A stretch of 64,000 nucleotides of DNA from Deltaproteobacteria bacterium (lineage in GTDB: Bacteria > Desulfobacterota > DSM-4660 > Desulfatiglandales > HGW-15): NCBI GenBank assembly GCA_016931115.1, contig JAFGFM010000144.1:68008-132007 (forward strand), read 5' to 3'. A program made the position numbers and the translations under genes. Each line of letters opens with the position of its first letter. Within the stretch, counting starts at the first letter, position 1. The notes under the pieces are model-generated. The model did not search any database. It was not told the DNA's origin and saw only the letters and a program-made list of their open reading frames with translations. Below, piece after piece: positions 4,534 through 49,096 of this stretch.

Positions 4534-4558
4534 TTTATATCTTATTGAATTTTTCTAA

Positions 4559-5299: not shown

Positions 5300-5312
5300 T
5301 GATAAACCCCTT

Positions 5313-11384: not shown

Positions 11385-11418
11385 AAAAAAGGACTTAACC
11401 CTTCAAGTCAAGTCCTTT
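11385..11418 (-). terminator. Weak intra-operon hairpin + U-tract (possible attenuator/partial terminator)
   Basis: Minus strand: aaaggactt-(13 nt)-aagtccttt followed by tttaata. The stem is AT-rich and lies between the DUF3467 gene and the GAF-MFP gene. Confidence 0.25.
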
Positions 11419-11864: not shown

Positions 11865-14800
11865 CTAATTAAGCTCTTTTTTCTTTAAATATGACAACTC
11901 ATTGCCTGATTTCTTATCCAGCTCTCCGTTAGTCCATTTGACAAACTTCCTGAGCCTGTTCTTTCTATCCAGATTTATGAATCCTGATTTGTCTATAATT
12001 TTACCTGTTTCAGATTTTTTACCAGACAATGCACCCCAGCCGGTCAGACCTGCTACCATTGCTGTTATATCTATTTTCTGGTCCAGATTATCAGACCTCT
12101 CTTTTGCTTTCAAGCCTGTGCGAAGGTCATTATCCATATTAGAGAGACCGTCAGTATCCCTTCTTGCGCTCAACAATAATTTATTCAGTCTCAGGTCTGT
12201 GCCTTCATTCTCCGCTGAGCTGTTAATGATCGTACCATCCGGCAGCACCTTTATTATCCTTCCATCAGGATATGTCGTTACAGAAGATCCATCCGGGTTT
12301 TTAATTGTTTTGGTACCATTAGGCAAGGTGATGGTAATGGTGCCATCAGGGAATATCATAACCTCCCTGCCGTCAGGTGCGTTCCTTACTATTGTTTTAT
12401 CCTGTTTAATAACTTCTATAAGGCCATTCGGATAACGCTTTTCAATTGCGCCATCAGACAGGATTGAGGTTTTAATTGTGGCTTTTCCCTGGCCCTGATT
12501 ATTACCGTCAGAGAGATGGCTGTAATAGCTACCCATACCAAAAGCCTCTTCCGGTCCGGTAATTACTGTCCCTGATGCAATTGTTTTACTCTCAATCTGC
12601 ATAAATAGAGACCTGTCAGAAGGGTGGAGAATGTTTTCTCCTGGCGAGGTTAATCTTCCGGCTTTAGATAATGCCCCTTCTGCCATATTATATTGAGGTG
12701 GGTAAACCCTGTTAACCCTGTATTCTTCAAGGATAACCCTTCCATATTTGCTGATCAGGACATCCTCAGGGGCTTTTTTGTTGATAATGTCTTTACCCTC
12801 ACCGCCAAAGAGGATATCTGTACCTTCACCACCATCAAAAATATCAGCCTCTCCATTGACTGTATGCCTGGTCTCTATTGTGACAGGGATACCATTACTG
12901 AACTGAATAAATCCATTATCACCAATGAGGATATCAGTGCCATTTCCTCCTGAAATCGTGTCTTTACCCTCACCGCCCAAGAGGATATCATTGCCATTGC
13001 CTCCGGATAACACCTCCTGTCCCCCGGAAGGTGCCGGGACGCTTATTACCTGGTAGACAACTCCATCTTCAAAGGTGACTATGCCAAGGTCACCAATTAT
13101 GATGTCACGACCAATTCCAGCAGTTATTGTGTCATTGCCCTGACCCGCTATCGCAATATTTGCACCATCACCAAGGTTAACAGTATCATCCCCACCAAGG
13201 TTATCCAGCCTTGTGTCAATTTCAGTAAGGTCACCCACATCTGTAAAGATCATGAGGCCATTATCACCGGTTACATGGTCATCTCCTGAACCTCCGGTTA
13301 CAGTATCGTTCCCGCCACCTGCTATCACATAGTTGTTACCATCTCCAGAATCGATTGTGTCATCGCCCGTAGTGGTGTCATTCGTATCTGTGCTCTCCAT
13401 CAGGGTTACAATGCCATCTGTGATTTCAATTGTGCCGTTGTCGCCGGTAATGTAATCCTTGCCTGCGCCTGTTGTTACAGTATCATCCCCTGCGCCAGCG
13501 ATTATGTAACTGGTGCCATCTCCTGTTGTTATCTCATCATCACCGCCTTGTGTCGGGCTTGTGCTTTCCAGCCTGGTTATCACACCATTTTCATCTATCT
13601 CTATTACGCCCGAATCACCGATAATGGCATCATTACCAATTCCAGCTGTTATTGTGTCATTGCCCTGGCCTGCTATCGCAATATTGTCACCATCACCAGC
13701 ATCGATTATATCGTCACCCGTGGTGGTATCATTAGTATCTTTGCTCTCCATCAGGGTTACGATATTGTCAGTGATTTCAATATTGCCATTGTCACCAGTT
13801 ATGTAATCCTTGCCTGCGCCTGTTGTGACTGAATCATTCCCTGCACCGGCTATTATGTAATTGGTGCCATCTCCTGCGGTTATATTATCATTACCACCCT
13901 GAGTCAGGCTTGTACTTTCCAGCCTGGTTATCACACCATTCTCATCTATTCCTATTACCCCTGAATCACCGATAATGGCATCACTGCCCTCTCCAGCTGT
14001 TATGGTATCATTACCCTGACCGCCTATCGCAATATTGTTACCATTGCCAAGGTCAATATTATCATCCCCGCCAAGGTTATCCAGCCTGGTGGCTATTTCG
14101 GTAAGGTCTCCCACATCTGTAAAGACCATTGTACCATGATCACCCGTTACATAATCTTCCCCGGATCCTCCAGTTACAGTATCCTTTCCGCCACCTGCTA
14201 TCACATAGTTGTCACCATCTCCAGCATCGATTATGTCGTCACCCGTGGTGGTATCATTAGTATCTTTGCTTTCCATCAGGGTTACAATGCCATTTGTGAT
14301 TTCAATGGTGCCGTTATCGCCAGTGATGTAGTCCTCTCCTCCACCTGTTGTTACAGCATCATTACCTGCACCGGCTATTATGTAATTGGTGCCATCTCCT
14401 GTTGTTATCTCATCATCACCGCCCTGTGTCAGTCTTGCGCTCTCAAGTCCGGTTATAATACCATTTTCATCTATTCCTATTACACCTGAATCACCTATAA
14501 TAGCATCATCACCAATCCCAGCTGTTATTGTGTCATTGCCCTGACCTGCTATCGCAATATTTGCACCATCACCAAGGTCAAGGATATCATCCCCGCCAAG
14601 CTCATTAAGGCGTGTGGCTATCTCGGTAAGGTCACCCACATCTGTAAAGACCAGTGTACCATGATCACCAATCACATAGTCATCGCCTGAACCGCCGGTT
14701 ACAGTATCCTTTCCACCACCTGCTATCACATAGTTGTCACCATCTCCAGAGTCGATTGTGTCATCGCCCGTAGTGGTATCATTCGTATCTCTGCTCTCCA

Positions 14801-35800: not shown

Positions 35801-38800
35801 CAGATGAACCGCTCCCTTCAGATTCACCCTCAGACCCTTTTGCACTTGCCTTGGCAGATGAGGAGCTTGTAGTAATGGTAAAGGCCTCAAAATTCATATC
35901 ACCGGCAGAATCTATCTCCCTGTCTGTAGTAGATATAGCACTATCAGTAACCACATTCAGACCCAGGGCTATACCTATAGCTGCACCACCACCAGAGGCT
36001 GCACCATCGGCCTTTGTCTCTGTTACTCCTTTGTGATTAGCCTTTGCGTTAAAGTCACCATCTATGTCCAGTTTATCTCCACTGCCCACGTAGGTTATTG
36101 TATCGTTATTGGCTACCGCTATACTGATAGCCCCACCTATCCCAACTCCACTCCCACCCTTGGCTTCACCACCGGCTGTTGAGGTCGTGACTGCCTTGGT
36201 ATTACTGTCCGCTGACAAACTTATATCATTTATCGTTCCGGTTATTATCGCGCTGTTTTCTATCTTCGCCGTTGAGGTGTTGTTAGATATATTTAAGGCT
36301 ACAGAGGCACCTATACCTAGGTTACCTCCTCCGCTTGCAGGGGCTGCTGATTCTACTGTAAGGCTCTGTATTCCTGTTCCGGCTGATGTAATATCAATCG
36401 CTGTACCAGCATTGGCATTAGCCTCTGTAGTGGCAAGCTTCACCCTGGTAGTCCCATCGGTAATCACATAATAGATCGTGCCATCAGTTAAACCGCCTAT
36501 AGCTGTTCCGTCACCCTTGTTGTATACAACCGCATCACCTGTCTGAAGGGCATGTTTCTCCCCCAGTTCAATCGTGTCTGAGGTAGCCACAACCTTTGTA
36601 CCTGCATCAAATCCTTTGCTTGCTACCGCATCAGCGCTGACAGCCTTCACCTTCTCACCGGTCATTACAGACCCTTCAGCGTTCGCTGTCGTAGTCTCAA
36701 GTCCAAGCTGTGTAATGGCAGTAGCTGCACCAATAGCCTCCACCTTAAATTGCTTCACGCTGGCTGTCTGGGTATCTGTCCAGATCGTCATTGTCTCTGA
36801 CGAGTCAAAGATAAGCTGATTTCCTATAAACTTTACATCCACTAATGCTGCATCACCTGCTTCAAGATGACCGGCATCTACCATGGCATCTTTTATCGCG
36901 GCCTTGATATCACTTAACCATGCCTTCTTGCACTCATCCGCTGTACCTAGGTACTCCTTTGCTTCAACTGTTACAAACACACGCTCGTTATCTGTCCCTA
37001 CACGTAAGGCAAAATTAAGCGCTTCGCTTTCATCATTAATTGGTGATTCAACCGCTGTTCCACCATCCCTCCTGTAAAATACTGGGCTCCCTGTCATGGT
37101 TACTGATGTTCCTGCACTTACAACCGGGTCAGCAGGGGTGATAGTATCCGTCATTACAAACTGCTGCTTTGCCTCGTCAAAGCTTGCTACCAGTTGACCC
37201 TTGTTGTTCCCGGCATTGTTGATCTTCTCTATAACCTCACGCACAGTTGTTGCACCATTCAGGACAACCACAAAGCTCTTCCCATTACGCAGGTTAAAAA
37301 CCAGATCTCCTGTGCCAGCACCTGCTGCTGTCAGGTTAAATTCCCCGGCTCCTTGCCCGATCTTTGTATCAAGTGTGATCCGATCCGTGTCACCTGCTGC
37401 CTCTACCTTCTTCTCAGGCTCTACAGAAGCTCCTTTGGCCGTGGCCAAAACTGTAGACTCAGTAGACCCTTCTGCAATGACCTTAACATCCCCGCCAGTA
37501 AGAGTTACTGTGCTACCTCCATTTATCAGCGCCTCGTTTCTGCTGTCAGCTATGTTCAGAGCCAATGACCCAGCTATACCTACCTTGCCTCCGCTCGCCC
37601 CTGATATCGCCTCTGCGCCAATTTTGCCTGTTGTATCACCTGATACAGATCTCTTCTTGGCCTCTATTGTCAGCCAGTCCGCATTTATCGTTGATCCTGT
37701 TCCTACATAGGCCTCATTTACTGCGCTAACAAGGTTGATAGCTACCGCTGCACCTATGCTTACCCCTCCAGATGCACTCGTTGCGCTTCCATCTGCCTTG
37801 GCTGTCGCATCAGTGTTATTGCTGGAACTCAAAGTAACCATGCCGTCAGAGGCTATTGTGCCGTTATCTGGGATATATGCCTGTGCCGTTGATTTAGCTA
37901 TGTTCACCCCTATCGCTGCCGCTACGCTCACGCCACCTTCTGATGTCTCAGCAGCAGGTGTCTCTGCAGATTCCCCTGTCCCCTTTGTACCTGTCTCACC
38001 TGCCTTCTTATCCGCAAGGCCCCTCTCTGCCCCTATCTTCTTGTCTACCCCCTTATCCTTTTCAGGATCAGCATCATCCTCTTCCTTTGCGCCTGATGCA
38101 CTGGCTTTAGCGCCTGCGCTGCTTGCACCCGCATTGTAGGCCCCAAACATCACGTCTCCACCGGCTGTTATTACCCTTTCAGTCGTAGACAGGCTTATAT
38201 CATTTACTACATTAAGCCCCAGCGCTACACCTATACCTGCGCTTGCCCCTCCTGCTGATCCGTCTGCAAAGGTGGTTGTGTTCCCTGTATGCTGTGCCTC
38301 TGCCTTAAGTGCTCCGGTTATACTTAACGGGCTGCCTTCTCCTATTACTGTAATTGCTTCATTGTTAACTACGCTTGTTGCTATGGCACCGCCTAAACCT
38401 ACGCCGCTTCCTCCTGTGGCCGCGCCCCCTGCCTTCGCTGTAGTCACTACAGTATTATCAGATGTGGCCTTCAGGGTTACATCATCCGCTCCGGTGAGAA
38501 CAACTGTGTCAGCTACCTTAGCCCTCGTGCTCGTATTGGCTATATTTAGCGCTACTGATGCACCTACGCCTACGCTCCCTGCTGTAGCACCCTCATTCGC
38601 CGGATTCGCGATAACTGTGTTTACTGTCGTGTTCTCTGCTGTTAAACTTACATCCCCTGCGCCAGTTATAACCACACTCGCACCACTCTCTATCTCCGCC
38701 CGGCTATTACCATCCAATATACCTAATGCCAATGACCCGGCTACTCCTACAGTACCCCCATTAGCGCCCGATATAGCCTCAGATGATATGGTGTTTGCGA

Positions 38801-41216
38801 GGATTGTTTCATCACCCTTTTCAGCCATCAATGCATTAATAGTGATACCGGCAGCACGAATCTCTCCTCCCCCACTCAGATATGCCTCATTACTTATATC
38901 TGCAATATTGATGGATACCCCTGCACCGACACCAACAGCAGCCGAACCTACCGTGCTCCCATCAGCCTTTGCTGAAGAATCTGAATTATTAAGGGATGTT
39001 AAATTTAAAAGACCGCTGGTTATAATACTCTGAGAGCTGTCAATATATGCCCTTGTATCACCTGAAAGGGTGGAAACAGCCACTGCACCCGCGATTGTAA
39101 CCGCACCATCACTCGTTTCTGCCTTATTATCGCTCAGGGCCTTTTCTGTTTTAGTTGATCCGCCTGATTCACTCGCCCCGCCTGATGTTGATTTTGCCGC
39201 TGTTGTTATGGTGTCAAGCTTTTTGGCCTGTATGGAAATACTCCCGGCAGTTTCCACAGATGCGCTTTCACTCAGGTACGCCTCAGTATCCCCTGTTATG
39301 GTTGTTACCGCTACGCTGCCTCCGGCAGCTGTTGAACCTCCTGCTGTACCGTCCGCCTCTGTCTTTACTGTCCTTGTGTTCAGCGCATTGATATTGATTG
39401 CACCACCCGCATTAAATGCGGATGAGCCTGTTACCCTGACAGCCGCAGACCCGTTAACAATAGAGGTTGCAACCGCTGCATCGGCAGATACTGACCCGCC
39501 CATTGATGCAAGAGATTGCGCTGTTGTCTGGGTTGTTGATGTTGCGCTGATACTGGTATTTCCTGTAGTAACTATCCTTGATGAGCCTGTTATGGATATG
39601 ATAGCCTCTGAAGTTACATTGATAAGCGCTACATCCACAGGGAGCTTCAGCTCAAGCGACGCATCTGCATCAACACCTGCTTCTGCAATTATATTTATTT
39701 CGCCTGCATTAAGAGTGGCATTATTAATGGTGACATAGGCCCTTGCATCTCCAAATACACTGTTATCAACAGCAGTTGACAAAAGGTTTATAGCGCCTGA
39801 CCCTGTGTCTATGGAGTTGTTTATATTGATTATCTCTGCCCCTATTGTCAGATTAACACCTGTAAGGAGCAGATTATCAGATATGGTAATGGTATCTTTT
39901 CCATCACCACCATTTATTGTTATATTTTCAATATTGGATATGCTGTTTAAAATAATGCCATAGGAAGTACCGTTTATGGTAATCCCGGAATCTGATATTC
40001 CTATGGTATCAGCGCCTGTTGTGCCCTCTATAATAAGGGTATCATTTCCCTCAAGACCGTTTATCAGGTAATTATCCGATGTTAAGGTGCCTGTAACAAA
40101 ACCATCGTATACTGTGAGTGTCTCCAGATTAAAGGTGATTGTATCTGCACCTGTTGTACCATTCACATTGATATCCGCCAGCAGGTGATCATACCCTGAC
40201 ATATCAATAGCACTGAAAAGGGAGGTGGACTCAATAATGCCCTCAGTGTATTCAAGATCCCAGTCCCCGCCATACCCCATGTGGCCGCTTTCATCTGTTG
40301 AAGCTGCCACATCAGCGCCAGTCTGCCTGCTTAACTCTGTGATAAAGCCAATGCCCAGTTCATCATCTGCAATATTGCACCCATAAAGCAGAATATCCCC
40401 GCCATCATTAAGACTTTCCTGCCAGACCCTCAGGCTTTCCGAATGCTCCTCCAGACTGTTCCTGTCAACAATACTGTTTCCAATACGCATCATACCTGAT
40501 GCACCATGTGAAATAATATGAATGGAGTCTATATCTTTATACTGGCTCAGTATCTCTGTAATCTGTTCAATCCCGTCCCTGCCAGGATCCAGGATTATTA
40601 CCTCATAAGAAGAATCCCTGACATCATCACCCTTTATCCCATTCTGAATGCCCCCATCTCCTGACAGGCTTTTCTCTTGAAGAATATCCTGATTTTCCGT
40701 ACCACCAGGGCTATCCTCAAATTTCCTGTTAATAAGTGTTTCATATTCAGGAACTGAGGGATCAATAATTACAAGCTGGCGTCCACTATCCTCTGAAAGC
40801 AGGTAAGATAACTGAACAGATATATTTTCCTTTGAAAAAGTATAAGCTTCGGAATCGTTTTTTATTGCTGAGGTATCGCCTTCGGACAGGGTGTCCGCAT
40901 GATTTGTCCCTCTACCATCTTTCCAGTCAGCAGATGTTACCGCCTCTGGTGGTGTTATACCAGCCTTTACATCATCAGTGTTTGATTCATTATTCACTCT
41001 TTCGCTGGAAAGTGTGTCCACTTGAGCAGCAGAGATGGCGCCTGTAAGAAGTATCTCATGCTCCTGCAGATCCTGTGCAGCAATAATCGGATCAGCAGAA
41101 AGCAGAATACGCTTTTCAAGGGTTTCAAAAAGCATCCTGCGGCGTTCGGGTTCTTTTTTTGATATTCTACCTGTAAAGGTCTTAAGCCTGCCTGTCAGTT
41201 TTTTCAGGTGTGACAT
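11865..41216 (-). CDS. Giant (9,783 aa) repetitive extracellular/adhesin-like protein: LEPR-XLL-like N-terminus, DUF4347-like domain, beta-solenoid (filamentous-adhesin/LktA-like) repeats, novel repeated modules, C-terminal RTX repeats
   Basis: A single uninterrupted 29,352-nt ORF with an AGAGG RBS. Acidic and G/S/T/A/N/D-rich, and I spotted only four Cys. N-terminal RRRMLFETLEKRILLSADP. DUF4347-like block ...VIIDPSVPEY...IHIISHGASG...LLYGCN...GADVAASTD..GYGGDWDLEY. Hundreds of ...G.GAS.A.N...N.T.A.I... solenoid turns. GGxGxD-type repeats near the C-terminus. Confidence 0.92.
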   Translation of the reverse strand: MSHLKKLTGRLKTFTGRISKKEPERRRMLFETLEKRILLSADPIIAAQDLQEHEILLTGAISAAQVDTLSSERVNNESNTDDVKAGITPPEAVTSADWKDGRGTNHADTLSEGDTSAIKNDSEAYTFSKENISVQLSYLLSEDSGRQLVIIDPSVPEYETLINRKFEDSPGGTENQDILQEKSLSGDGGIQNGIKGDDVRDSSYEVIILDPGRDGIEQITEILSQYKDIDSIHIISHGASGMMRIGNSIVDRNSLEEHSESLRVWQESLNDGGDILLYGCNIADDELGIGFITELSRQTGADVAASTDESGHMGYGGDWDLEYTEGIIESTSLFSAIDMSGYDHLLADINVNGTTGADTITFNLETLTVYDGFVTGTLTSDNYLINGLEGNDTLIIEGTTGADTIGISDSGITINGTSYGIILNSISNIENITINGGDGKDTITISDNLLLTGVNLTIGAEIININNSIDTGSGAINLLSTAVDNSVFGDARAYVTINNATLNAGEINIIAEAGVDADASLELKLPVDVALINVTSEAIISITGSSRIVTTGNTSISATSTTQTTAQSLASMGGSVSADAAVATSIVNGSAAVRVTGSSAFNAGGAININALNTRTVKTEADGTAGGSTAAGGSVAVTTITGDTEAYLSESASVETAGSISIQAKKLDTITTAAKSTSGGASESGGSTKTEKALSDNKAETSDGAVTIAGAVAVSTLSGDTRAYIDSSQSIITSGLLNLTSLNNSDSSAKADGSTVGSAAVGVGAGVSINIADISNEAYLSGGGEIRAAGITINALMAEKGDETILANTISSEAISGANGGTVGVAGSLALGILDGNSRAEIESGASVVITGAGDVSLTAENTTVNTVIANPANEGATAGSVGVGASVALNIANTSTRAKVADTVVLTGADDVTLKATSDNTVVTTAKAGGAATGGSGVGLGGAIATSVVNNEAITVIGEGSPLSITGALKAEAQHTGNTTTFADGSAGGASAGIGVALGLNVVNDISLSTTERVITAGGDVMFGAYNAGASSAGAKASASGAKEEDDADPEKDKGVDKKIGAERGLADKKAGETGTKGTGESAETPAAETSEGGVSVAAAIGVNIAKSTAQAYIPDNGTIASDGMVTLSSSNNTDATAKADGSATSASGGVSIGAAVAINLVSAVNEAYVGTGSTINADWLTIEAKKRSVSGDTTGKIGAEAISGASGGKVGIAGSLALNIADSRNEALINGGSTVTLTGGDVKVIAEGSTESTVLATAKGASVEPEKKVEAAGDTDRITLDTKIGQGAGEFNLTAAGAGTGDLVFNLRNGKSFVVVLNGATTVREVIEKINNAGNNKGQLVASFDEAKQQFVMTDTITPADPVVSAGTSVTMTGSPVFYRRDGGTAVESPINDESEALNFALRVGTDNERVFVTVEAKEYLGTADECKKAWLSDIKAAIKDAMVDAGHLEAGDAALVDVKFIGNQLIFDSSETMTIWTDTQTASVKQFKVEAIGAATAITQLGLETTTANAEGSVMTGEKVKAVSADAVASKGFDAGTKVVATSDTIELGEKHALQTGDAVVYNKGDGTAIGGLTDGTIYYVITDGTTRVKLATTEANANAGTAIDITSAGTGIQSLTVESAAPASGGGNLGIGASVALNISNNTSTAKIENSAIITGTINDISLSADSNTKAVTTSTAGGEAKGGSGVGIGGAISIAVANNDTITYVGSGDKLDIDGDFNAKANHKGVTETKADGAASGGGAAIGIALGLNVVTDSAISTTDREIDSAGDMNFEAFTITTSSSSAKASAKGSEGESEGSGSSENVDKKVGDQRKLADDKAQETGKKGTGDAAETPKAETSDGTVSVAAAIGVNITLSESKAFIPANGHVVSGGTLTLNSSNNTDAKADADGSAVDPANTKVGIGAAIAINYSDVANRAYVGTDADIDTNGLVVKADMAGDEKAIDLSSVSVTRESINLGEEHGIQTGDKIVYDNGGDASIGGLVDGQTYYAVLDDTRSFNIIPYDIDDLGVNELNTFRDAMAKVGIDINTIGGSINYTDNWIELGADHFLKDGDLVVYSKGNLLNSGPIGGLKEGATYKVDVDEDNPTRIKLLDPDSDEVQDLLFSVENISFFDHKFTIVYPVAVKLALTPEDALIGKTIDLTTGATGSNHRLIEKSHSFVANAVSGAGASNVGVAGSLALNVITTHTEAVIESLAAVDAGTGNISIIAESSQNDSASAASKVTGGKVGIGASVALNVLPVNVINADIQDNSQITGGNDLTIKAESEHAVFTTVKAGAAGGTAVSPAVAVAFANDYTTARLGANDISQIDITGNVTIEANHTGTAHTIADASVAGDKAAVGAAVGLNIILDSTVAKIERDISADGYIKIDALTDQISMLDITASAKGNKSEDETKEGEAAPRSSDDEAQAQANAATGGTKTLPKANDSLSDANDKSLEKTNDKNGKNGTGSSSVGIAAAIGVNWVISDNKTSIAEDIHVNAGGSLEVIAESETDLTTKVTGAALSFDSTTGVGAAVGLNVGILSNEAIIGAGADIEAANISIQAVTPEDRTNDFTVWALAIGGGKDNGVAGSAGINVMVMDTDASTGAGATLKSTGNIDIDAENDISYQNIAGGGGVGKKAGVGVAVAANIIVSNTDAYLSEDTHADASEVISINSDSSITPVNLEIPGMGSLGFGVSSIAAGGGVSTSSEGKAAVGGSAVVDVVVQNTHAYVGEGVKINTDPALIAGLNQSVVVDASSLTRILNGAGGLAVAFGGTGVGIALDVGVIVKDTEAYIESGATVNADKSVTINADSEEDITSVAVSAGVSKQNGIAGSLAVFVLTADTRANIDGASIDSGGNVILTATDTSSLNTIAFTIAAAGKTGVGAAGSVNIITNNVLAEISGSTIDSEGNVSLSAKSTPIIRSLGIGVSGSGENAVAINASGNAVANSVRAIIKDGSTVTAEGDVLLSAKDEAGFIIPTWMIDEGVQEDLNAALEDSPIDLKSSILAVNVSVAGSGQKAVGVALMGNVVTNDIAAEISGSTVRAGVDDTGTVINAESDLSFDAYSKAGILAVTVGVGASGDLAVQGTGFGNVITNSTGAGIISNSSVEVADDISVSAKDDSSIRSLGLSIAASGSNAIGAIVGANVITNSVTSEIAGSHVKSGDSLALKSLSDSDIMAFTGGVAAAGSTAVLVSLSANVITNSTKAIISDQLINNINHRSDIDAGGAVDISAKDSSTIDSLAFGVSGSGSTAVGIGLGANVIVNTIESSIIGSDLDTGSTLGIESESSAIIRTLAIGVSGSGSVAVQVTAMGNAVANTVSATISEGSIVTAAGDITITAKDIAPSLIPDWIVSADRADDLTKALEGTPIDLDANILSVMVSVAASGSVAVNAALVGNVIANTVTAEISESDVESLGGLIDIDALSKAGIIGLTVGVAGSGAVAVNATGYGNVITNRIESIITGGSHVTASDTIDITAMDSSQIRSLGVSVAGSGAVSVGALIAANVVANTVMANIAGSTVVTGSTLNIEAENNSDILGLTVGVAGSGAASVLLSLSANVISNTTEAGISSGTGLVHELTLDDTATADKKKVFDPANDVSIDNNTICVGPDHGFKTGDALIYGTSGGSAIGGLTDGETYYVIVDDPASGNIELAYTKEDAYNGQSIDLMANALTGSVIDAAGAVTISSKDTSEINTLAIGVSATGGGAVGVALAANVITNSVGTRIEGTTLETGSTLDLTSENSSIIRTLAIGVSGSGGFAVQVTAMGNVIANDTSAVISDSEVTAAGDINIDASDIAPTMIPLMDAVGSYITDGETVQDLKDGLSGTPFDPTANIISLMVSVAGTGGVAVNGAFTGNVISNNIEALIHDSRVVSDTGLIVLDTESRAGILALTIGVAGSGAVAVNATGFGNVIANSVSSRITGGSEVITGSTAGDITLDATDTSLIRSAAISVAGTGGIAAGALIGANVISNSVITEISSSKVESGAELELTSENKSSILGLSVGVAASGAGAGILSLTGNVITNTTRAAITGEETSRSDIDTTGAINLTAKDISEINTLAIGVAGSGGGAVGAALAANVIVNSAETEINNSDVDTDSTLLMDSSNSSIIRTLAIGVSGSGGFAVQVSAMGNVIANDTSSLISGSTVTANGDITIKAEEKSPSMIPLMDAIGSFINDAKTKNSLQDALSDTPFSLSANILSMLINVAGSGAVAVSGAFTGNVITNSITTEITDSTVTSEAGGISETSVSSAGIVSISVGVGGSGIAAVSVVAFGNTITNRVESIVSDTSVLDAAGEIKVSASDKSTIRSVGLSIAASGGLAASIIGAVNFITNTVTAEISGSTITDGTNLNITALSDSNIYSFTGGIAASGAVAAQLSLSGNVIINTVASRIKDSNLDLTGAITLLSTDSSTIDSISVGVAASGAAAAGAALSENHIQNSVGAGIEGSHVAVNGNIEAFAKSAAVIRSLAAGLSGAGGVSGAASVTLNQIRNNISAFATGSTLISTNGEIIIKALDSADKASNYMSGMTMPNNVSSSLNSRLSGTDHASSANILSFAGSIGGAGLAAGAAAVSDNDIQNTVSAAVTDSDLTSTASDITVFAESESKIVSMSLGIGAAGGIALSASETNNTIKNSVDANISGECAVSANDDITVKATDESEIDSIALSLAGAIGAAIGGVSVTNNIDNDVSSRVYGTSGSKKNSINKADDLNIYAKGTYRIKGAGLGANVGIVAAGASDVESEIAGSVNAYIGDYTDIGQDTDHLNDIYINAISDADIMSKTTAISAGIGGGSENYAESEIKPEVNAYIADNTVIEATGNIEVNAEATSKSYATTTGINAGLAAVGASKSVSKISPTIIAYAGGDITAQSIQVKGTHKLPSSGYSTYARSTGSAGALVGVDATTGNVEAKAAVKSYILDGAQFNITGTTVINADNKTLQYSEANSNAGGLIALGFNKATVLSGTVTHAYIEGNVNITGGSLDISATGVDNNKAYVKAGSGGLVAGSASNGKTINNSTTWVDIATGTGTKIDVGGNFKVKAEHNTLFRADSDSITAALVGGSGANVTNNVTSDVNIVFGTGVDVNAGAIDVDANNIITKISDGYNVVAGAGGLVGGPAASSITTIVDRTKIIVQDGADIEVDGDRHHPGSMNFDSKNMLYATDKVKLDSGGAIAIALAKSVIINNVNTNEIIIGDANLTGVGSIGISASSIANVQTQANSNTYGLAGAAQGESYSSVHADNKVTVGNNAEIDALGDISLNAGVGNSFYVKANTDLWNKTALPIYTDPKAHGEIVQSNLVDIKSGAYIGSAADVHLNADKGYYYAHGAGVGTDLYREVLAAIANFFGSIFGIKPVSLKIVKDSYKEAASADVRVDGSVRSGKNNIQELIISNTDEQYAPIMMTDQGSGVPLLTFAANGVDDDTITRSNGSWVTDGFEAGQYIRVYGSNGNDGVYKINSVGDTVLTLADNIIIDRVSDSADLFAATSSTGTRPIVMNGSPNLTFNRTNSTITRAAGDWIEDGFVEGQYINVDGSLNNDGAYRILSITDTVITVTGSKLANETTGSADIVAQAIKPVSSAANITGNPVLDYIPRRAVIERSSGSFIDDGFLSGKTIIIDGVNYAVVQVTAGSLYLAETYDITEHSDIAENITSTIGQTTVDMAFVPEQAEADAEITWSGGNWADQGIAAGDLIRISGADNAANNTGTGFEISSVSSSVIQLVDGSGIIDDAVSSGPITIQKDISVLSGVDLTFAAEVRDGDDNLVSRATITRDTGSWVTAGLRAGQNITISDAGANNGNYSIYSVSDSVITLIESSSIGAATDDNGSLFTLNLTISDNVSFTAQREHEYAKVINQSGSWSSDYRQNQQVTFSGADISGNNGSYTILSVSGNTMYVNGPLTLDMVDNGGQTTATVSASATANITWSIDNARIERSSGSWVTDGFAADQKIVIKGSDNNDGDYAIESVTATVIRLKDGYELTHDETNTDTDTLIQTPAAKVVEVTYGKGILFTRGVGGSQDRIELTDSSDWSDLGFATGQYIRITGSASGNNGIYKIELATGDTLILATGYDTFDADETYIASASRNITGIAPKSIEQVVSLTEGTSLTLTVADNRITRLTGDWAAEGFQANQYIVIRGSSEGNDGTYRIQEISGYSLILDGNHRISQNETYAGMKIYATPIKPGTISDLIYRTPGVDMPLEVKADIAEAIRAEIDKLELDKQNYGGDGKALAGIQAQIDQLKYQAGELGLLSPDGAVVGNMEVTFIETPEIIARSGDIIISGDTLSGSGKLDAPGDTRITIENHSPYYLRIKEDLTVLDLGGNVTFNGARVYSNSDIQARNRSGRLAQFSSIITDKNSADPLIEIRNTYNPPPTGLLASAPPPDIEILGSNITNIEGTVSIANKEGSIFIKDDDSTVPEQRTSIKAKTVEIKAGRDVVIATDTQHVGGDPAAVWDDLATASDSTQKFNPDGTEYDGGSNWTGSNTAHRAQNGAIIAGNNVFITARVLNINGPIQSGNADRTLTLQDTSSVTLKDKTTTTLDQRISTLEAEGKSDWITLTDSDIEVFYNHETNRIIIDDVSVDGGLIKLTGHILATDTDGLLKVVDGFGKIKIDNQSSYVIDVQSIKTGEDEELILTGADLRVTGRDMLVTGADWITLKDNGASGADTVTRQTGSFILDGFREGQQVRITGSQEGNNGVYTVERVEEKALTLTAGATLTTEFRDNSSFEISGNWITLSDTGADDTISRSAGSWITDGFYVGQSIRILDSANGNDGIYVVKSVGDLNLVLEGGDFSSEVSTSTTLEVVGNWITFNHTADSDTVTRNAGSWIEEGYRDGQTIVITGSANNNGEYKVVRVTEKGLELDSTAFLVNEVNISEGLTVKGMGNGIEGKVIITDTAYDVDSDPNVYKPLTTTYTRIGNSVQVTDNDTQNVVSGSSAIIDGRNATYQPVSGQRYYWVTGYSETSVLTEQWTSSSFWGINYANGQSRSYYNYVDPTPVDLEPESKFVEKENDGTTNPGYAYEFNSLGDPVVYTREWVTTSGWWIFSTKTYHLERITSVGRTNYDYHSVKADYPVKIEFMGYETGVVEITSDTDINLTGVISNLSGPTAIVSENGSINQLEELALIRAENITLEAANGTIGNQVRATIRRNSGKWTEEGYDAGDIIRFTDGLGENNNKDFVIASITESTITLENGSGLVSITDNDGFTLYNVTDDTTTEYNTDPLTLTAVEEHYKSVRTDVAGGLLTASADGLVAIEEIEGKVTVDTVISANDDVVMASEGGIFANDNSSLISGDNIHLTSLTGALGTSSLNLRINTNNDNNYDDDDKFDAITAHAFNDIYLHEISDDLRVVAIESLDGDVNITIDDGNLVDVNTLERRDVRTEAELADLWDEMNLIDNDGKETQDAYKGLKTREYNTYWGYRTGSTIYIDSISQVSGTSITFDADHGFTTGDALLYRVMEGDTITGLNDKQTYYAIVVGSHTIRLADSLSHANADQSINISTPLAEGRFSLTNMLAYDTGFKVTMTDAQREAYKDQLGWDDARIDLEELKRTQEFHELHNRFSVLGDTFNPDWQYDTANPGYEPLFTPAQDVDSANDTINIGVNLLATGTGVVYNANGGSKIRYMEEGEWKELAEDKIYYIIKADSGNPSIIRLADSLENANLGIYLDIDASGATGTDHSISDVDALAIGSSWTEEQLKYSLGAGWLKETTDTETRIESSNIIGKNVVINASGSIGNFLNEQVILISNGDLESGGTLIDLADSEKAALAAAERADLISIKSDTNTVSFGTLHELESGAAVIFGSGGNMGVGGIQGVTDGVTYYARVIDDFTIQLFDSAAHATGEGDTGLINITRSEARIVQREDIDFSSGGTVTEISIYTSEGDMGGEGTLLNLTDYENDLINSTDPEDITESNSALNTIRFGSAHDLTSGTPVNFGPFGTFTISNISGVTDGEIYYARVIDEFTIKLFDTEENALGSNDTGVINITRSEIRIIQQQDTGAGIDIKAGEFIFIGSESDVNIISIQAGPDDNPNGEIRLKTKGGIYNSSAGAGTNIKGGDLFLESGREGIGLDGAPVTIDLASGAKLTSRANNGIFIHEVNGDMNVDTLFSRKRIDLIADMSILDAFDDDYLNIRTEVLNLFAGDSIGSKTGDTINYLDINLYPEGILNATAGGDIYLYETDGDMLTGSIVSSNGDVTLRAVASILDAENDLQADITGNSINLEAMFGGIGISGNDLDINSAFSGEGSLISTSSLNTYLTETDGDLSIYQVFTGPGYTAFIGSGASILNARLDEEDNILSGSAWLFADGNIGSGTRAIKTTIGHLEGRSVHGSIWLINQGHLIIGGVTENDGIRAEGRIEITAHSPMTVTERMEAGDIILTTADNSDADHLTVQAGVNVISTAGSIELRAGDNLIIEDGAIVHAADSVELYVDFGNADAGVGGVLEMRGMVTGNLVTITGNSDNDIIPIMYTASPTVINTLGGNDTISIGSNADPDSNNSGNIRNILELIDIDGGAGIDTLHLDITGETEAVTGTLTEDTITGFNMGLNGSVQYTAIENLNLNTGSGDDAVNVQATASGTVTNIFTGAGNDTVNISSDAPANLGNLDGINGTINIDTESGSNTITISDAGSETADINVIITENRVSGMSPADINYAATNGTFEGGIKIIFGRGADVISVVDIQSDTLTTISGNEGDDVITIEETVISGRLEVHGDDGDDTIDASAVPAGAELVLAGGLGNDNLFGGDGNDVIFGDEATIDRDINYNITGVVSVQPDSGGNEVIVGNDGDDILVGGFGDDDITGNNGNDYIVGDNGTVEITDNIVTLMESRDTNDTTTGDDTIDSGDGDNYVIAGGGKDTVTGGSGDDYVIGDHGTLVFTDVGDLTEIATRLNELGGDDILDLGDGANIAIAGQGNDTITAGIGDDAIIGDSGVIGIDENGIITGLESARLTQGGDDEITTGDGTNYIIAGAGNDAVTTGGGEDYITGDNGTIEITNGIVTLMESKDTNDTTTGDDIIDAGDGDNYVIAGGGKDTVTGGSGEDYVTGDHGTMVFTDVGDLTEIATRLDNLGGDDNIDLGNGNNIAIGGQGNDTITAGEGSDAIIGDSGVIGIDENGVITRLESTSLTQGGNDNITAGDGTNYIIAGAGNDSVTTGAGKDYITGDNGNIEITDNIVTLMESKDTNDTTTGDDIIDAGDGDNIAIAGQGNDTITAGIGNDAIIGDSGVIEIDENGVITRLESTSPTQGGDDEITTGDGTSYIIAGAGDDTVTTGAGKDYITGDNGTIEITDGIVTLMESTDTNDTTTGDDTIDSGDGNNYVIAGGGNDTVTGGSGDDHVTGDNGLMIFTDVGDLTEIDTRLDNLGGDDTVNLGDGANIAIAGQGNDTITAGIGRDIIIGDLGIVTFEDGVVYQVISVPAPSGGQEVLSGGNGNDILLGGEGKDTISGGNGTDILIGDNGFIQFSNGIPVTIETRHTVNGEADIFDGGEGTDILFGGEGKDIINKKAPEDVLISKYGRVILEEYRVNRVYPPQYNMAEGALSKAGRLTSPGENILHPSDRSLFMQIESKTIASGTVITGPEEAFGMGSYYSHLSDGNNQGQGKATIKTSILSDGAIEKRYPNGLIEVIKQDKTIVRNAPDGREVMIFPDGTITITLPNGTKTIKNPDGSSVTTYPDGRIIKVLPDGTIINSSAENEGTDLRLNKLLLSARRDTDGLSNMDNDLRTGLKAKERSDNLDQKIDITAMVAGLTGWGALSGKKSETGKIIDKSGFINLDRKNRLRKFVKWTNGELDKKSGNELSYLKKKELN
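12700..15150 (-). repeat. RTX-type (GGxGxD nonapeptide-like) calcium-binding repeat region of the giant protein
   Basis: Examples: GGLGNDNLFGGDGNDVIFGDE, GNDGDDILVGGFGDDDITGNNGNDYIVGDNG, GGNGNDILLGGEGKDTISGGNGTDILIGDNG. Confidence 0.85.
12890..14816 (-). repeat. Tandem DNA repeat: four units of 525/525/351/~525 nt within the RTX region
   Basis: The marker (c/t)tccatcaggg (reverse complement of ...TLMES) sits at 13395, 13746, 14271 and 14796. Units are roughly 80-90% identical by eye. The 351-nt unit lacks a 174-nt (58-aa) in-frame block. Confidence 0.85.
20640..21325 (-). repeat. Three further copies of the GSWxxDGF module
   Basis: VTRQTGSFILDGFREGQQVRITGSQEGNNGVYTVERV; ISRSAGSWITDGFYVGQSIRILDSANGNDGIYVVKSV; VTRNAGSWIEEGYRDGQTIVITGSANNNGEYKVVRV. 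A 13th copy lies at ~19690-19860. Confidence 0.8.
22745..25045 (-). repeat. Nine tandem ~55-85-aa 'GSWxxDGFxxGQxIxIxGSxxNDGxYxIxSV' modules in the giant protein
   Basis: Examples: ITRSNGSWVTDGFEAGQYIRVYGSNGNDGVYKINSVGDTVLTLAD; ITRAAGDWIEDGFVEGQYINVDGSLNNDGAYRILSITDTVITV; IERSSGSWVTDGFAADQKIVIKGSDNNDGDYAIESVTATVIRL. Confidence 0.8.
27450..32900 (-). repeat. Five tandem super-repeats (356-455 aa each) inside the giant gene
   Basis: The marker I(I/V)R(T/S)LA(I/A)G(V/L)SG(S/A)G recurs at nt ~27843, 28912, 30004, 31369 and 32479, giving spacings of ~1068, 1092, 1365 and 1110 nt. Each is followed by a non-solenoid loop ending ANILS. Confidence 0.8.
40255..40785 (-). other. DUF4347-like domain of the giant protein
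   Basis: QLVIIDPSVPEYETL ... EVIILDPGRDGIEQITEIL ... SIHIISHGASGMMRIG ... ILLYGCNIA ... GADVAASTDESGHMGYGGDWDLEY. Confidence 0.65.
41088..41135 (-). other. LEPR-XLL-like N-terminal motif of the giant protein (aa 28-43: MLFETLEKRILLSADP)
   Basis: A basic run (KKEPERRR) is followed by MLFETLEKRILLSADP, a Pro->Lys variant of the LEPRxLLSA signature that starts many giant repetitive proteins. Confidence 0.65.
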
Positions 41217-47432: not shown

Positions 47433-47617
47433 TTTTACCCCCGGTTTTAAGAGATACAGATTTAGTCCCCGCAGAATATTTCGCGGTTATCCAGATAAAT
47501 ATGAGGGTTAAAAAACTCCTGTACCCTCTCTCGATTCAAATCGACAGGTGGGGGCAAAGACTTAAATTTTTTAACCGGATCAGTTAATGGTATACAGGAT
47601 GCAAATATCTTTTAATA

Positions 47618-49051: not shown

Positions 49052-49096
49052 ACCATTGATAAATCATAGAGTAATCAGCTCTTGAAAAATTTATGC

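Follow-up and report, generated by a model that had tools for sequence, protein, structure and literature searches.

A 1-MDa LEPR-XLL/DUF4347 protein as the probable cargo of an adjoining SecA-like/M50/HlyD module that has no ABC transporter

Introduction

How megadalton proteins are transported across two bacterial membranes is an unsolved problem. In classical type I secretion, the whole chain is made before the C-terminal signal emerges, an arrangement that is awkward for proteins of 10,000–36,000 aa. The giant RTX adhesins of type I systems—LapA, MpIBP and SiiE—use an ABC exporter of the HlyB type, a C-terminal signal, and an N-terminal retention plug. The 9,783-aa protein described here resembles these adhesins in its huge, repetitive extender, its C-terminal RTX repeats, its association with TolC and membrane-fusion proteins, and its probable retention at the surface; but its locus has no ABC exporter, and the protein has a conserved leader at its N-terminus and a conserved motif at its C-terminal end. 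With Fusobacterium LktA and filamentous haemagglutinin (FHA) it has one type of 53-aa tandem repeat in common (NF012206), but it lacks their TPS domain, signal peptide and TpsB partner.

The LEPR-8K/DUF4347 giants, such as a Vibrio protein of ~8,000 aa (PMC10868602), match it in the LEPR-XLL motif, the DUF4347 domain, great length and C-terminal RTX repeats; ours has, in addition, LktA_tand_53 repeats and two unannotated small modules. Giants of the LEPR-XLL/DUF4347 kind are known from database annotations; nothing that we found published assigns them a function, a route of secretion or a structure, and the papers searched contained no experimental characterization of the LEPR-XLL/DUF4347/LktA_tand_53 family.

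The genes that flank the giant gene have a precedent of their own. Kamneva, Poudel and Ward (PLoS One 2015, PMC4452313) described, bioinformatically, a conserved ‘secondary SecA_DEAD’ locus encoding the same four proteins—GAF+HlyD, Peptidase_M50-like+HlyD, SecA_DEAD, and HlyD/biotin-lipoyl—sometimes with OEP/TolC adjacent and, as here, without an ABC transporter. They proposed that SecA is the energy source and the M50 protein the membrane part; they named no substrate, and giant, RTX and DUF4347 proteins go unmentioned in their paper. What is added here to that work is the tie to giant proteins with LEPR leaders, along with a PqqD-like domain in the M50 protein, a small DUF3467 gene and a motif at the C-terminus of the cargo.

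Giant proteins have been linked to parts of such machinery elsewhere. Cag_663 and Cag_665 of Chlorobium chlorochromatii possess LktA-like repeats and, as here, an adjacent TolC gene, and export by SapC, TolC and HlyD has been proposed for them (bioRxiv 10.64898/2026.03.19.712371). Giant genes with SecA_DEAD domains occur in Omnitrophota (bioRxiv 10.1101/2023.11.21.568195); there, too, a truncated SecA motor without scaffold and wing domains is tied to giant proteins; the difference is that there the giant protein itself incorporates the SecA domains by fusion, while the SecA-like protein described below has a gene of its own.

The giant gene

The original prediction, made from the DNA sequence alone, was of an uninterrupted frame encoding 9,783 aa, and so it proved: the ORF listing and our own translation of the 29,352 nt agree on a frame without internal stops that ends in a single terminal stop. 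The second-longest ORF of the window—the whole 64-kb stretch of DNA that was analysed—encodes 1,361 aa, and the giant ORF is far longer than expected by chance. Its ATG lies 63 nt past the stop codon of the TolC gene, with a Shine–Dalgarno sequence, AAGAGG, 11 nt 5' of it. The protein has a mass of 999.8 kDa (~1.0 MDa), a pI of 4.17, and four cysteines in all. Its repeats were also predicted to be diverged at the DNA level and they are: no self-match of the gene exceeds 85% identity, and the longest stretch repeated exactly is 37 nt. The orthologue in locus L087, 9,406 aa long, is called intact on at least seven independent JGI contigs. The two proteins are 78% identical across 2,192 colinear residues, and dN/dS is 0.15 over the C-terminal 2,189 aligned codons.

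Intact frame, diverged repeats, intact orthologue and a dN/dS of 0.15 together establish that this 29-kb gene is real. It is true that short-read assemblies break at the 3' end of the giant gene, where a Logan contig that is 99% identical and belongs to the same organism stops at a distance of 112 nt from the DUF3467 gene, and that gene calls are fragmented on related long-read contigs; but with those four observations against it, and with every conserved terminal feature in place, an assembly artefact or a decaying pseudogene is very improbable. The further claim that the gene is among the largest in bacteria stands in general, but within the LEPR-XLL/DUF4347 family its size is not exceptional. 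A giant relative adjoining the same type of module is 18,499 aa long, the NCBIfam model of the leader carries the name LEPR-8K, and genes for more than 30,000 aa have been published (bioRxiv 10.1101/2023.11.21.568195).

Architecture of the giant protein

Profile scans and self-comparison returned the domain order that had been predicted, at the same positions: a leader and DUF4347-like domain, an LktA-type solenoid interrupted by three charged linkers, five super-repeats, two unfamiliar small modules, an RTX block, and an atypical tail (Table 1). The protein is a member of the LEPR-XLL/DUF4347/LktA_tand_53 family as judged by NF012209, PF14252 and NF012206, each of which scores above its own cutoff. 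The family is large: of the representatives clustered at 50% identity, 13,556 are related to the DUF4347 N-terminus.

Table 1. Features of the giant gene and of its neighbours, in window coordinates
Feature	Coordinates	Strand	Evidence and remarks
TolC-family outer-membrane channel, 515 aa	41280..42827	-	Pfam OEP E 1.7e-50
Giant ORF	11865..41216	-	9,783 aa, ATG start; ORF listing and own translation
N-terminal leader, aa 1–45	41082..41216	-	basic stretch, then FETLEKRILLSADP
DUF4347, aa 148–346	40179..40775	-	Pfam PF14252, E 5e-50
LktA_tand_53 region, aa ~380–5380	25077..40079	-	G/A/S/T/N/I-rich 53-aa repeats; presumed beta-solenoid shaft
Three charged linkers in shaft	37929–38099, 35679–35849, 33846–34064	-	sequence
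Five ~360-aa super-repeats	27402–32903	-	landmark motifs and self-comparison
Module A, 13 copies, ~80–95 aa	22692–25016, 20592–21293, 19602–19856 (span 19602..25016)	-	iterated HMM
Module B, ~68 aa, 4 clustered copies	17325..18977	-	iterated HMM
Module B, 4 copies inserted in shaft	36387–36590, 35157–35360, 34884–35102, 30255–30464	-	iterated HMM
RTX calcium-binding block, aa 8689–9480	12777..15152	-	HemolysinCabind E 1.4e-43
C-terminal tail, aa 9481–9783	11868..12776	-	Tcp10_C and motif HMM
DUF3467 protein, 107 aa	11469..11792	-	PF11950 E 2.6e-21
GAF-HlyD	9501..11369	-	HlyD_D23 E 5e-16, GAF_3 E 8e-6
PqqD/RRE-like domain, M50-type intramembrane metalloprotease, TM and HlyD (M50-HlyD)	7313..9457	-	Peptidase_M50, HlyD_D23
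Truncated SecA-like ATPase, 667 aa	5313..7316	-	SecA_DEAD E 4e-102, SecA_PP_bind E 3e-23
Short HlyD/RND-type adaptor, 266 aa	4559..5359	-	HlyD_D23 E 4e-20

The sequence FETLEKRILLSADP, at aa 29–43, is the LEPR-XLL motif. NF012209 (LEPR-8K) matches aa 29–50 with 28.7–32.2 bits against a cutoff of 17, Pfam Planc_extracel matches the leader region weakly, and of 120 N-terminal homologues 56 carry the motif too. A hydrophobic core of the Sec type is absent from the leader, and no TM-like segment is found before aa 1148. When the retrieved loci, 1.34 million residues in six frames, were scanned with a strict leader regular expression, nine matches came back, and all nine lie at the N-terminus of an ORF that adjoins either the module or TolC.

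PF14252 matches the DUF4347 domain over the full model, with 169.8 bits against a cutoff of 24.6. Among 99 aligned domains, His237 is conserved in 99% and Cys280 in 100%. In an AF2 model (pLDDT 92.6) both residues are placed at the ends of beta-strands, and the model has the features of clan CD: a caspase-like alpha/beta fold with His, then Cys, at strand ends. The same His...Cys order at the strand ends of a central sheet is found in the cysteine-protease domain (CPD, family C80) of MARTX and TcdB and in the type VI effectors Tce1 and Tce2. Compared with Foldseek, the model has Tce1 as its top match (9qpe_G, E 2.3e-4), followed, weakly, by legumain, the GPI transamidase PIGK, caspase-3 and the MARTX CPD; TM-scores against well-characterized clan-CD peptidases are weak, 0.3–0.4. 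Tce1 itself belongs to DUF4347, and published work calls it a putative cysteine protease (PMC8262886, PMC13323088). The toxicity of Tce2 depends on its predicted active site, and both effectors were aligned by the authors to the catalytic dyad of the TcdB and MARTX CPDs (PMC13323088). DUF4347 in the giant protein is predicted to be a clan-CD, CPD-like cysteine-protease fold with His237 and Cys280. Its counterparts are small effectors (Tce1, Tce2) or internal domains of toxins (the MARTX and TcdB CPDs), whereas here it is the N-terminal domain of a 1-MDa protein.

The LktA-type resemblance of the shaft rests on 37 stretches that match NF012206, LktA_tand_53, with 671.9 bits against a cutoff of 50 (E 1.5e-207). 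The three linkers end as predicted, in VSVAAAIGVN or GIAAAIGVNWV, at aa 1096, 1847 and 2458 (nt ~37.9, 35.7 and 33.8 kb). The landmark motifs of the five super-repeats fall at aa ~2957, 3327, 3780, 4145 and 4501, spaced 356–453 aa apart, and the repeats also appear in the DNA as a self-match at an offset of 364 aa. Of the small modules, A has the consensus TITRxxGSWxxDGFxxGQxIxIxGS..N.GxYxIxSV, and its copies score E 1e-20 to 1e-31 each; B, with eight copies in total, has the consensus GxxHxLxTGDAVVYxxGGGxxIGGLTDGxTYYAIV. Neither has a significant match in Pfam, and the best hits in sequence searches of the PDB—a de novo SH3-like barrel at E 0.014 for A, and E 0.026 for B—are not significant.

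The RTX block accounts for 16 of the protein's 21 GGxGxD-like motifs. It is built from units of ~117 and ~175 aa that are 62–86% identical as protein and at most 85% identical as DNA, and its length differs between the giant protein and its orthologue in L087. Beyond it lie ~300 aa that include a conserved, non-RTX motif. This tail contains G-box/Tcp10_C-like beta repeats (12222–12449, Tcp10_C E 7.5e-19) and carries, at 11913–12071, a terminal motif of ~50 aa, DITAMVAGLTGWGALSGKK...RLRKFVKWTNGEL, that no Pfam or NCBIfam model covered when the tail was scanned. An HMM of this motif picked out 22 related loci, and in each the ORF ahead of the module ends 0–38 aa past the motif.

The flanking genes

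The most informative part of the locus is the apparatus that flanks the giant gene, which the original prediction had passed over. TolC lies upstream; downstream, in order, come DUF3467, GAF-HlyD, M50-HlyD, the SecA-like gene, and the short HlyD. These secondary-SecA_DEAD/M50/HlyD/GAF genes are co-linear, and profile scans found no ABC exporter anywhere in the 64-kb window. Across 89 loci, an ABC nucleotide-binding motif turned up in two, both times in a small stand-alone protein, and in 87 there is none within 10 kb of the module.

The TolC protein scores 240.7 bits with TIGR01844 (type_I_sec_TolC), above the cutoff of 225, and TolC stands directly 5' of a giant gene with DUF4347 in other loci, too, L085, L012, L089, L090, L092 and L093 among them. 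The DUF3467 gene, with an RBS of its own, occupies the gap between the giant gene and the module; in 31 of 68 related loci it is found at the equivalent place and in the same orientation, and its products are 46–84% identical across phyla. Considered as a SecB-like chaperone and compared with SecB by hhalign, DUF3467 gave a probability of 0.2 over 14 columns, and its AF2 model has a pLDDT of only 50, too low for a comparison of folds.

GAF-HlyD, which is kept in nearly all of 80 loci, has a cytoplasmic N-terminal GAF part, one strong TM segment (aa 355–373), and a periplasmic HlyD domain. M50-HlyD has ~6–7 hydrophobic segments, and matches NF041824 (daptide_HExxH) over aa 20–407 with E 4.7e-44, below the equivalog cutoff, and Pfam Peptidase_M50 with a score of 22.4, below the cutoff of 27.2. 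Both zinc-site motifs of site-2 proteases, HExxH and NxxPxxxxD(G), are present, as HEFSH and NPLLRFD, and H210, E211, H214, N304/N306, P307 and D312 are invariant in 22 aligned sequences. Its match to PqqD is below the Pfam cutoff (E 0.003; 18.2 bits against 23.4), while 14 of 22 family members match PqqD, the best with E 1.7e-5.

The SecA-like protein retains NBD1, the preprotein-binding domain and NBD2, with GEGKT as Walker A and DEAD as the DEAD box. It aligns to residues 10–601 of solved SecA chains 778–802 aa long, and lacks ~200 C-terminal residues of SecA; in published domain maps this missing part comprises the wing domain, the two-helix finger, and the C-terminal linker. With these regions gone, and with 595 bits against SecA and SecA2 equivalog cutoffs of 800–814, it is neither a canonical SecA nor an accessory SecA2. 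The start of the short HlyD gene overlaps the SecA-like gene; its product has an N-terminal hydrophobic anchor and scores 119.7 bits with TIGR01730 (cutoff 94.9). Domain and TM scans of the locus revealed no obvious dedicated inner-membrane, protein-conducting channel.

Linkage of module and giant protein

Homologues of M50-HlyD number more than 6,700. Eighty genome loci retrieved with an M50-HlyD profile, from Desulfobacterota, Alpha-, Beta- and Gammaproteobacteria, Rokubacteria, Omnitrophota and Planctomycetota, hold the order GAF-HlyD, M50-HlyD, SecA-like, HlyD; the SecA-like gene is missing within the module at L003, L050, L100, L107 and L132. Upstream sequence of 4 kb or more was available for 52 loci; in 34 of them an ORF of at least 1,200 aa on the same strand ends just before the module, and 31 of these ORFs run past the edge of the locus. 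One product is the relative of 18,499 aa. About a third of the module loci, that of Desulfuromonas acetoxidans for example, have no adjacent giant gene.

The reverse search gave the same picture from the other side. Of 80 metagenome loci retrieved by DUF4347, 33 offered 4 kb or more of upstream sequence; in 14 of these the M50/SecA-like module is upstream of DUF4347 and in five TolC (19 of 33 together). The linkage is seen also in L083, L084 and L085, and in L050, from Omnitrophota, a giant ORF with a LEPR leader directly follows M50-HlyD. The module and the giant proteins with LEPR leaders are thus linked in both directions, and across phyla.

A possible export route

Given this linkage, the module probably exports the giant protein. 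As far as its genes tell, the apparatus resembles type I secretion in having periplasmic adaptors and a TolC duct, and it includes no ABC transporter. We consider it likely, on balance, that the ORF encodes an acidic, calcium-binding, extracellular LEPR-XLL/DUF4347 protein of 1 MDa, fibre- or adhesin-like, that is the cargo of the surrounding export apparatus. The reality of the gene, the identities of the domains, the conservation of catalytic residues and the two-way linkage are shown; export of this protein by the module is inferred, as are recognition of the leader, the direction of threading, any cleavage, and a role in adhesion or as a fibre.

Export might proceed as follows. The N-terminal leader—the basic stretch and FExLE(P/K)RxLLSAD—would act as the targeting signal, and the PqqD-like leader-recognition domain of M50-HlyD would bind it. 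The SecA-like motor, its preprotein clamp kept, would then feed the unfolded chain into an inner-membrane complex of M50 protein and adaptors, from which the chain would leave through TolC. Processing could be the work of the M50 protease, of the His-Cys protease domain of DUF4347, or of both. Outside the cell the solenoid and RTX parts would fold with calcium, and the basic GW...RW tail at the C-terminus, last to exit, may serve as a retention or anchoring element or, alternatively, as a second recognition element. Several points stand against this scheme: the locus encodes no obvious protein-conducting channel, and M50 proteases are not known to conduct polypeptides; canonical SecA engages SecY through regions that the SecA-like protein lacks; some module loci have no giant gene beside them, and a few have no SecA-like gene within the module; the PqqD match of the M50-HlyD protein in the window falls below the Pfam cutoff, and DUF4347 is only weakly similar in structure to well-characterized clan-CD peptidases; and RTX repeats close to the C-terminus typify substrates that leave C-terminus first by ABC-driven type I secretion.

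In its boldest form, which we hold with rather more doubt than conviction, the proposal is that giant proteins have a widespread secretion pathway of their own, of which the locus is one instance. A RiPP-style domain, fused to an intramembrane M50 protease and a periplasmic adaptor, would recognize a cleavable LEPR-XLL leader; a stripped-down SecA would replace the ABC transporter; threading would run from N- to C-terminus through HlyD and TolC, possibly co-translationally; and the GW...RW tail would be a stop or anchor. Should this be so, the pathway would be a distinct type of secretion system and would account for the bacterial export of 1–4-MDa proteins.

Alternative readings

The most serious alternative, in our view an unlikely one, is that the giant protein is a classical type I substrate, exported C-terminus first by an ABC/HlyD pair encoded elsewhere together with the adjacent TolC, and that the SecA-like/M50 module serves another purpose. 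The large C-terminal RTX block, the acidic pI, the scarcity of cysteines (a composition typical of RTX adhesins), the nearness of TolC, and the module loci that have no neighbouring giant gene would all fit. Of the parts of a type I system, however, the window supplies the membrane-fusion component (three HlyD-domain proteins) and TolC but no HlyB-type exporter, and 87 of the 89 module neighbourhoods are likewise without an ABC motif. The two-way linkage across phyla would be left unaccounted for, as would a conserved N-terminal leader confined to ORFs that adjoin the module or TolC, and classical substrates end in a short terminal signal, for which there is no consensus to search with, rather than in ~300 aa with a conserved non-RTX motif past the RTX block.

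Less likely again is export in two steps, in which the SecA-like ATPase delivers the leader-bearing chain to the housekeeping SecYEG, the three HlyD adaptors and TolC carry it onward out of the periplasm, and the leader is cut off in the membrane by the M50 protease. The ATPase is, after all, truly homologous to SecA and keeps a preprotein-binding domain, the locus encodes no dedicated inner-membrane channel, and M50-family (site-2) proteases cut within or near the membrane. But the leader has no hydrophobic core, and the ATPase, which falls below every SecA and SecA2 equivalog cutoff, is missing the C-terminal third of SecA, whose two-helix finger is used at SecY in SecA–SecY structures.

We give less credence still to the idea that the protein is in the main a MARTX-like or contact-delivered toxin and not a structural adhesin, its DUF4347 cysteine protease entering another cell as the active or auto-processing part. 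DUF4347 does resemble the putative cysteine-protease effectors Tce1 and Tce2, and for Chlorobium chlorochromatii a transfer of giant LktA-repeat proteins into a partner bacterium has been reported (bioRxiv 10.64898/2026.03.19.712371); but the other 9,400 aa contain no recognizable effector domain, shaft-like repeats dominate the architecture, and the position of the protease domain at the extreme N-terminus, beside the leader, fits self-processing. A two-partner-secretion exoprotein of the FHA/LktA type can be dismissed as scarcely credible: LktA_tand_53 repeats, named for the Fusobacterium leukotoxin that is encoded beside a TpsB-like gene, are present, but the features that define such systems are all missing, the protein having neither a Sec signal peptide nor a TPS (Haemagg_act) domain and the window ORFs of at least 150 aa, as originally predicted of TpsB, including neither POTRA nor a ShlB transporter.

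Export by the module, then, is the reading we favour. It pairs a large family of giant proteins, of more than 13,000 sequence clusters, with an ABC-less module previously without a known cargo, and the pairing provides elements that can be tested: the leader and a PqqD-like reader; two proteases, M50 and DUF4347; a motor resembling SecA; DUF3467; and the motif at the C-terminus of the cargo. It may bear, too, on how the giant symbiosis proteins of Chlorochromatium are exported, and on the SecA-containing giants of Omnitrophota. Both parts, giant protein and module, are present in Methylobacterium extorquens, Neptuniibacter caesariensis MED92, Marinobacterium rhizophilum and Mesorhizobium, among others; culturable bacteria with the system are found in Methylobacterium, Mesorhizobium, Bradyrhizobium, Neptuniibacter, Marinobacterium and Vibrio.

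The giant gene is intact

The original prediction of an uninterrupted gene for a 9,783-aa protein holds: a single stop-free frame runs from 41216 to 11865 on the minus strand, the ORF listing gives 9,783 codons from an ATG start, and independent translation encounters only the terminal stop. An AAGAGG ribosome-binding site lies 11 nt 5' of the ATG, and the stop codon of the preceding gene, TolC, is separated from the start by 63 nt. The product has a mass of 999.8 kDa, a pI of 4.17 and only four cysteines.

A gene of this size and repetitiveness could be an artefact of assembly, but we reject this reading on the grounds of diverged repeats, an intact orthologue, and selection at the codon level. 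The repeats have indeed diverged in DNA, as originally noted; the closest, all in the RTX block, are 83-85% identical, and the longest exact repeat is 37 nt, so repeat collapse or chimerism is unlikely. A 9,406-aa gene occupies the same position in a related organism (M50-HlyD 73% identical), and at least seven JGI contigs have it as an intact gene call. The last 2,476 residues of this orthologue are colinear with the window protein, with 78% identity over 2,192 aa, and dN/dS across the aligned codons of the two giant genes is 0.15. The main difference between them is the length of the RTX block (L087/L088, the orthologue loci, 1-7429, versus 12.7-15.2 kb in the window). There the alignment jumps from aa 9034 to aa 9179, and hence the number of RTX units varies between close relatives. 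An independent assembly of the same organism (Logan SRR8925804; short-read contig of 16,444 bp, 99% identity) also contains the genes DUF3467 through ETF. This contig breaks off at the 3' end of the giant gene, 112 nt short of the DUF3467 gene, which shows why such genes usually appear fragmented in assemblies.

The plus strand opposite the giant gene contains ORFs of up to 714 aa, 28201-30345 (+) for example. These are most likely shadow ORFs, since the codon content of the giant gene is biased and repetitive.

Architecture and family of the giant protein

Every architectural element described at first reading can be traced in the protein. The DUF4347-like domain after the leader is a Pfam match at aa 148-346 (E 5e-50). 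The endings of the three charged linkers, VSVAAAIGVN, VSVAAAIGVN and GIAAAIGVNWV, are at aa 1096, 1847 and 2458 (~37.9, 35.7 and 33.8 kb). The five super-repeats share a recurring landmark (aa ~2957, 3327, 3780, 4145 and 4501), and a DNA self-match offset by 364 aa supports them. Iterated HMMs delimit the two types of small module, A with 13 copies and B with 8; the RTX block occupies aa 8689-9480 (HemolysinCabind, E 1e-43), and the tail that follows it is ~300 aa long.

Above their cutoffs, the NCBIfam models LEPR-8K (NF012209; the LEPR-XLL motif, in the leader) and LktA_tand_53 (NF012206; 37 stretches, E 1.5e-207) both match. Pfam recognizes DUF4347, the RTX repeats, and Tcp10_C/G-box-like repeats in the tail; ~85% of the sequence, modules A and B included, has no Pfam match, these modules having none at E <= 0.1. 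Profiles of the two modules found nothing significant among PDB sequences, the best matches being a de novo SH3-like barrel for A (E 0.014) and an adhesin for B (E 0.026).

No hydrophobic core was found at the N-terminus. The leader consists of a basic stretch, then FETLEKRILLSADP, and 56 of 120 N-terminal homologues display the consensus FExLEPRxLLSAD. Among 50%-identity representatives, 13,556 are related to the DUF4347 N-terminus, and many of these run to thousands of residues. A Vibrio LEPR-XLL/RTX protein of ~8,000 aa has been mentioned in passing (PMC10868602), and the literature searched, which mostly excludes subscription journals, yielded no functional study of LEPR-XLL/DUF4347 giants. 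The giant protein is a new member, large yet typical, of an annotated but unstudied family. Its architecture suggests a role in adhesion, matrix or cell-cell contact. LktA-repeat giant proteins are reported to be transferred between the partners in 'Chlorochromatium aggregatum' (bioRxiv 10.64898/2026.03.19.712371), and so other roles are possible, too.

DUF4347 as a protease-like domain

Among 99 aligned DUF4347 domains, His237 is present in 99% and Gly279-Cys280 in 100%, with AAS306, TG311 and GGDWxLE conserved alongside; the invariant Cys280 is one of the four cysteines in the 9,783 aa of the giant protein. In an AlphaFold2 model of aa 196-350 (55 sequences, pLDDT 92.6), the His and the Cys lie at the ends of adjacent strands. 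The top Foldseek match to this model in the PDB is 9qpe_G (E 2.3e-4, probability 1.0, 25% identity), a chain deposited under the name 'DUF4347 domain-containing protein'; it is Tce1, from the Hcp3-Tce1 complex. The matches that follow are weak—legumain, GPI transamidase, caspase-3 and the MARTX cysteine protease domain—and all of these belong to clan CD. In sequence searches, profile A4 had no match among PDB sequences at E <= 0.01, and single-sequence phmmer returned spurious de novo TIM-barrel matches, with 9qpe_G at E 0.41 only.

The literature on Tce1 agrees with this structural link. PA0256/Tce1 contains DUF4347 (PMC8262886); Tce1 and Tce2 have been put forward as cysteine proteases whose His and Cys align with the dyad of the TcdB CPD, and the toxicity of Tce2 depends on its predicted His/Cys site (PMC13323088). 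The model points to a protease-like domain of clan CD in the giants, a reading not described before as far as the searchable literature goes, and the domain in our giant protein may be an active protease.

The gene cluster around the giant gene

The giant gene is the second of seven in a co-directional minus-strand cluster, preceded by TolC and followed by the genes for DUF3467, GAF-HlyD, M50-HlyD, the SecA-like protein and a short HlyD.

Genes that accompany the giant gene, in cluster order
Gene or product	Position	Strand	Remarks
TolC	41280-42827	-	First of cluster
DUF3467 protein, 107 aa	11469-11792	-	Own strong RBS; Pfam E 2.6e-21
GAF-HlyD	9501-11369	-	After DUF3467
M50-HlyD: M50-type intramembrane metalloprotease fused to HlyD adaptor	7313-9457	-	After GAF-HlyD
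SecA-like protein, 667 aa	5313-7316	-	After M50-HlyD
Short HlyD adaptor	4559-5359	-	Last of cluster

The last four genes form a module that Kamneva, Poudel and Ward described in 2015, in which an OEP gene is an occasional addition and an ABC transporter is always absent; these authors proposed a role in secretion, left the substrate unnamed, and do not mention giant or RTX proteins (PMC4452313). It is a previously noticed but unstudied locus, and no paper linking it to the giant protein, its candidate cargo, was found in the literature searched (mostly outside subscription journals). No ABC transporter was found anywhere in the 64-kb window.

The SecA-like protein retains both its ATPase motifs and a preprotein-binding domain, aligns to residues 10-601 only of solved SecA chains, and scores below every SecA/SecA2 equivalog cutoff. 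In published SecA domain maps, the C-terminal part that it lacks contains the wing domain, two-helix finger and C-terminal linker. In M50-HlyD the motifs HExxH and NPLLRFD are invariant, and the protein's match to the daptide leader-peptidase model (E 4.7e-44) falls under the equivalog cutoff of that model. Its N-terminus is PqqD-like: at E 0.003 in the window protein, which is below the Pfam cutoff, and in 14 of 22 family members, at best with E 1.7e-5. PqqD-like domains are leader-peptide recognition elements of RiPP pathways.

Across phyla, the DUF3467 protein shows 46-84% identity, and its gene has the same place in 31 of 68 related loci. Its AlphaFold2 model from a 40-sequence alignment was unusable (pLDDT 50), and comparison with E. 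coli SecB by hhalign gave a probability of 0.2; that it acts as a SecB-like chaperone is a guess. Directly after its stop codon and before GAF-HlyD, at 11385-11417 (-), is an 8-bp hairpin, AAGGACTT ... AAGTCCTT, with a 13-nt loop and then T6. One possible role for it is that of an attenuating terminator, separating cargo from machinery genes. The terminator scan missed it because the loop is long; consensus scans for promoters and terminators did no better than chance.

Linkage of cargo and module

The association was followed in both directions. From module to cargo, a search of species-representative genomes with the M50-HlyD profile gave 80 loci, from Desulfobacterota, Alpha-, Beta- and Gammaproteobacteria, Rokubacteria, Omnitrophota and Planctomycetota, nearly all of which keep the order GAF-HlyD, M50-HlyD, SecA-like, HlyD. 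In 34 of the 52 loci that extend 4 kb or more upstream, a same-strand ORF of at least 1,200 aa ends 85-2,500 nt before GAF-HlyD; 31 of these 34 run beyond the 10-kb flank, and one product next to the module is 18,499 aa long. From cargo to module, a search with DUF4347 gave 80 metagenome loci; 33 of them extend 4 kb or more upstream, and in that region the M50/SecA-like module is found in 14 and TolC in 5. Three contigs inspected one by one display the same pattern. In the 1.34 million six-frame residues of the loci, a strict regex for the leader has nine matches, always at the N-terminus of an ORF adjoining the module or TolC. Nucleotide-binding motifs of the ABC type are confined to 2 of 89 loci, in each case in a small stand-alone protein.

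Cargos in 22 loci have a C-terminal motif of ~50 aa in common, VAGLTGWGxxS plus basic residues ... RxFxRW(D/E/N), always 0-38 residues from the stop, for which there is no Pfam or NCBIfam model. As far as the searchable literature goes, neither this motif nor the DUF3467 component, the pairing of cargo and module, or the PqqD-like reader has been described before.

Variants occur. The upstream giant ORFs of L021, L023, L067, L069 and L078 end, not in the GW...RW tail, but in a metzincin-like HELGHxLGL zinc-protease motif; a serralysin domain is likewise mentioned for the Vibrio case (PMC10868602). In L003, L100, L107 and L132, the short HlyD gene immediately follows M50-HlyD, with no SecA-like gene between. 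In L050, which comes from an Omnitrophota MAG, M50-HlyD is directly followed by a giant ORF (12648-22091) whose leader is of the LEPR type, FEAMESRILLSAND. An Omnitrophota locus of this arrangement is among those with a match to the strict leader regex; neither a SecA-like gene nor DUF4347 was detected in L050. It may connect to published Omnitrophota giant genes with internal SecA domains.

A proposed export route

The most economical reading, we infer, is type-I-like, TolC-dependent export in which the ABC transporter has been replaced. The leader would serve as the address and the PqqD-like domain as its reader; the SecA-like motor would push the chain at the expense of ATP through an inner-membrane and periplasmic assembly of M50 and adaptor proteins, and TolC would be the exit. 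The M50 protease, the DUF4347 protease, or both, might process the chain, and once outside, the RTX and solenoid parts would fold with calcium and so block back-sliding. With the signal at the N-terminus, export could start before the ~10,000 codons have been fully translated; the basic C-terminal motif would arrive last, and could anchor the protein or terminate export.

This scheme has its weaknesses. No protein-conducting channel is evident in it, some module loci have no adjacent giant gene, and a few modules have no SecA-like gene. RTX blocks, moreover, classically accompany C-terminus-first, ABC-driven secretion. Set against characterized systems, the one in the window is a variant of type I secretion rather than a member: the ABC exporter that defines the type was searched for without success. 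Two-partner secretion we reject, since the window, as originally stated, has no TpsB gene anywhere, and the locus is not such a system. The locus opens the export of megadalton proteins to experiment.

The wider window

Upstream of TolC on the same strand, 43347-51293 (-) encodes a 1,361-aa FecR-domain protein, an SLT lytic transglycosylase, a Skp/OmpH-like chaperone, and a TPR plus beta-barrel protein. Of these, only the FecR-domain protein was searched for in related loci; it had no counterpart there, and on this ground it and its neighbours were not counted with the system. Best hits place the organism near Desulfatiglans/Desulfobacterales. The surroundings look chromosomal, and their composition gives no hint of an island. 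At 1873-1947, 56680-57359 and 59031-59939 there are four tRNA genes (Met, Lys, Glu, Met) together with a tyrosine recombinase of the XerC/D type, and the genes around them are of the housekeeping kind: ETF, FabD, ClpB, HisD and RNase II-type.
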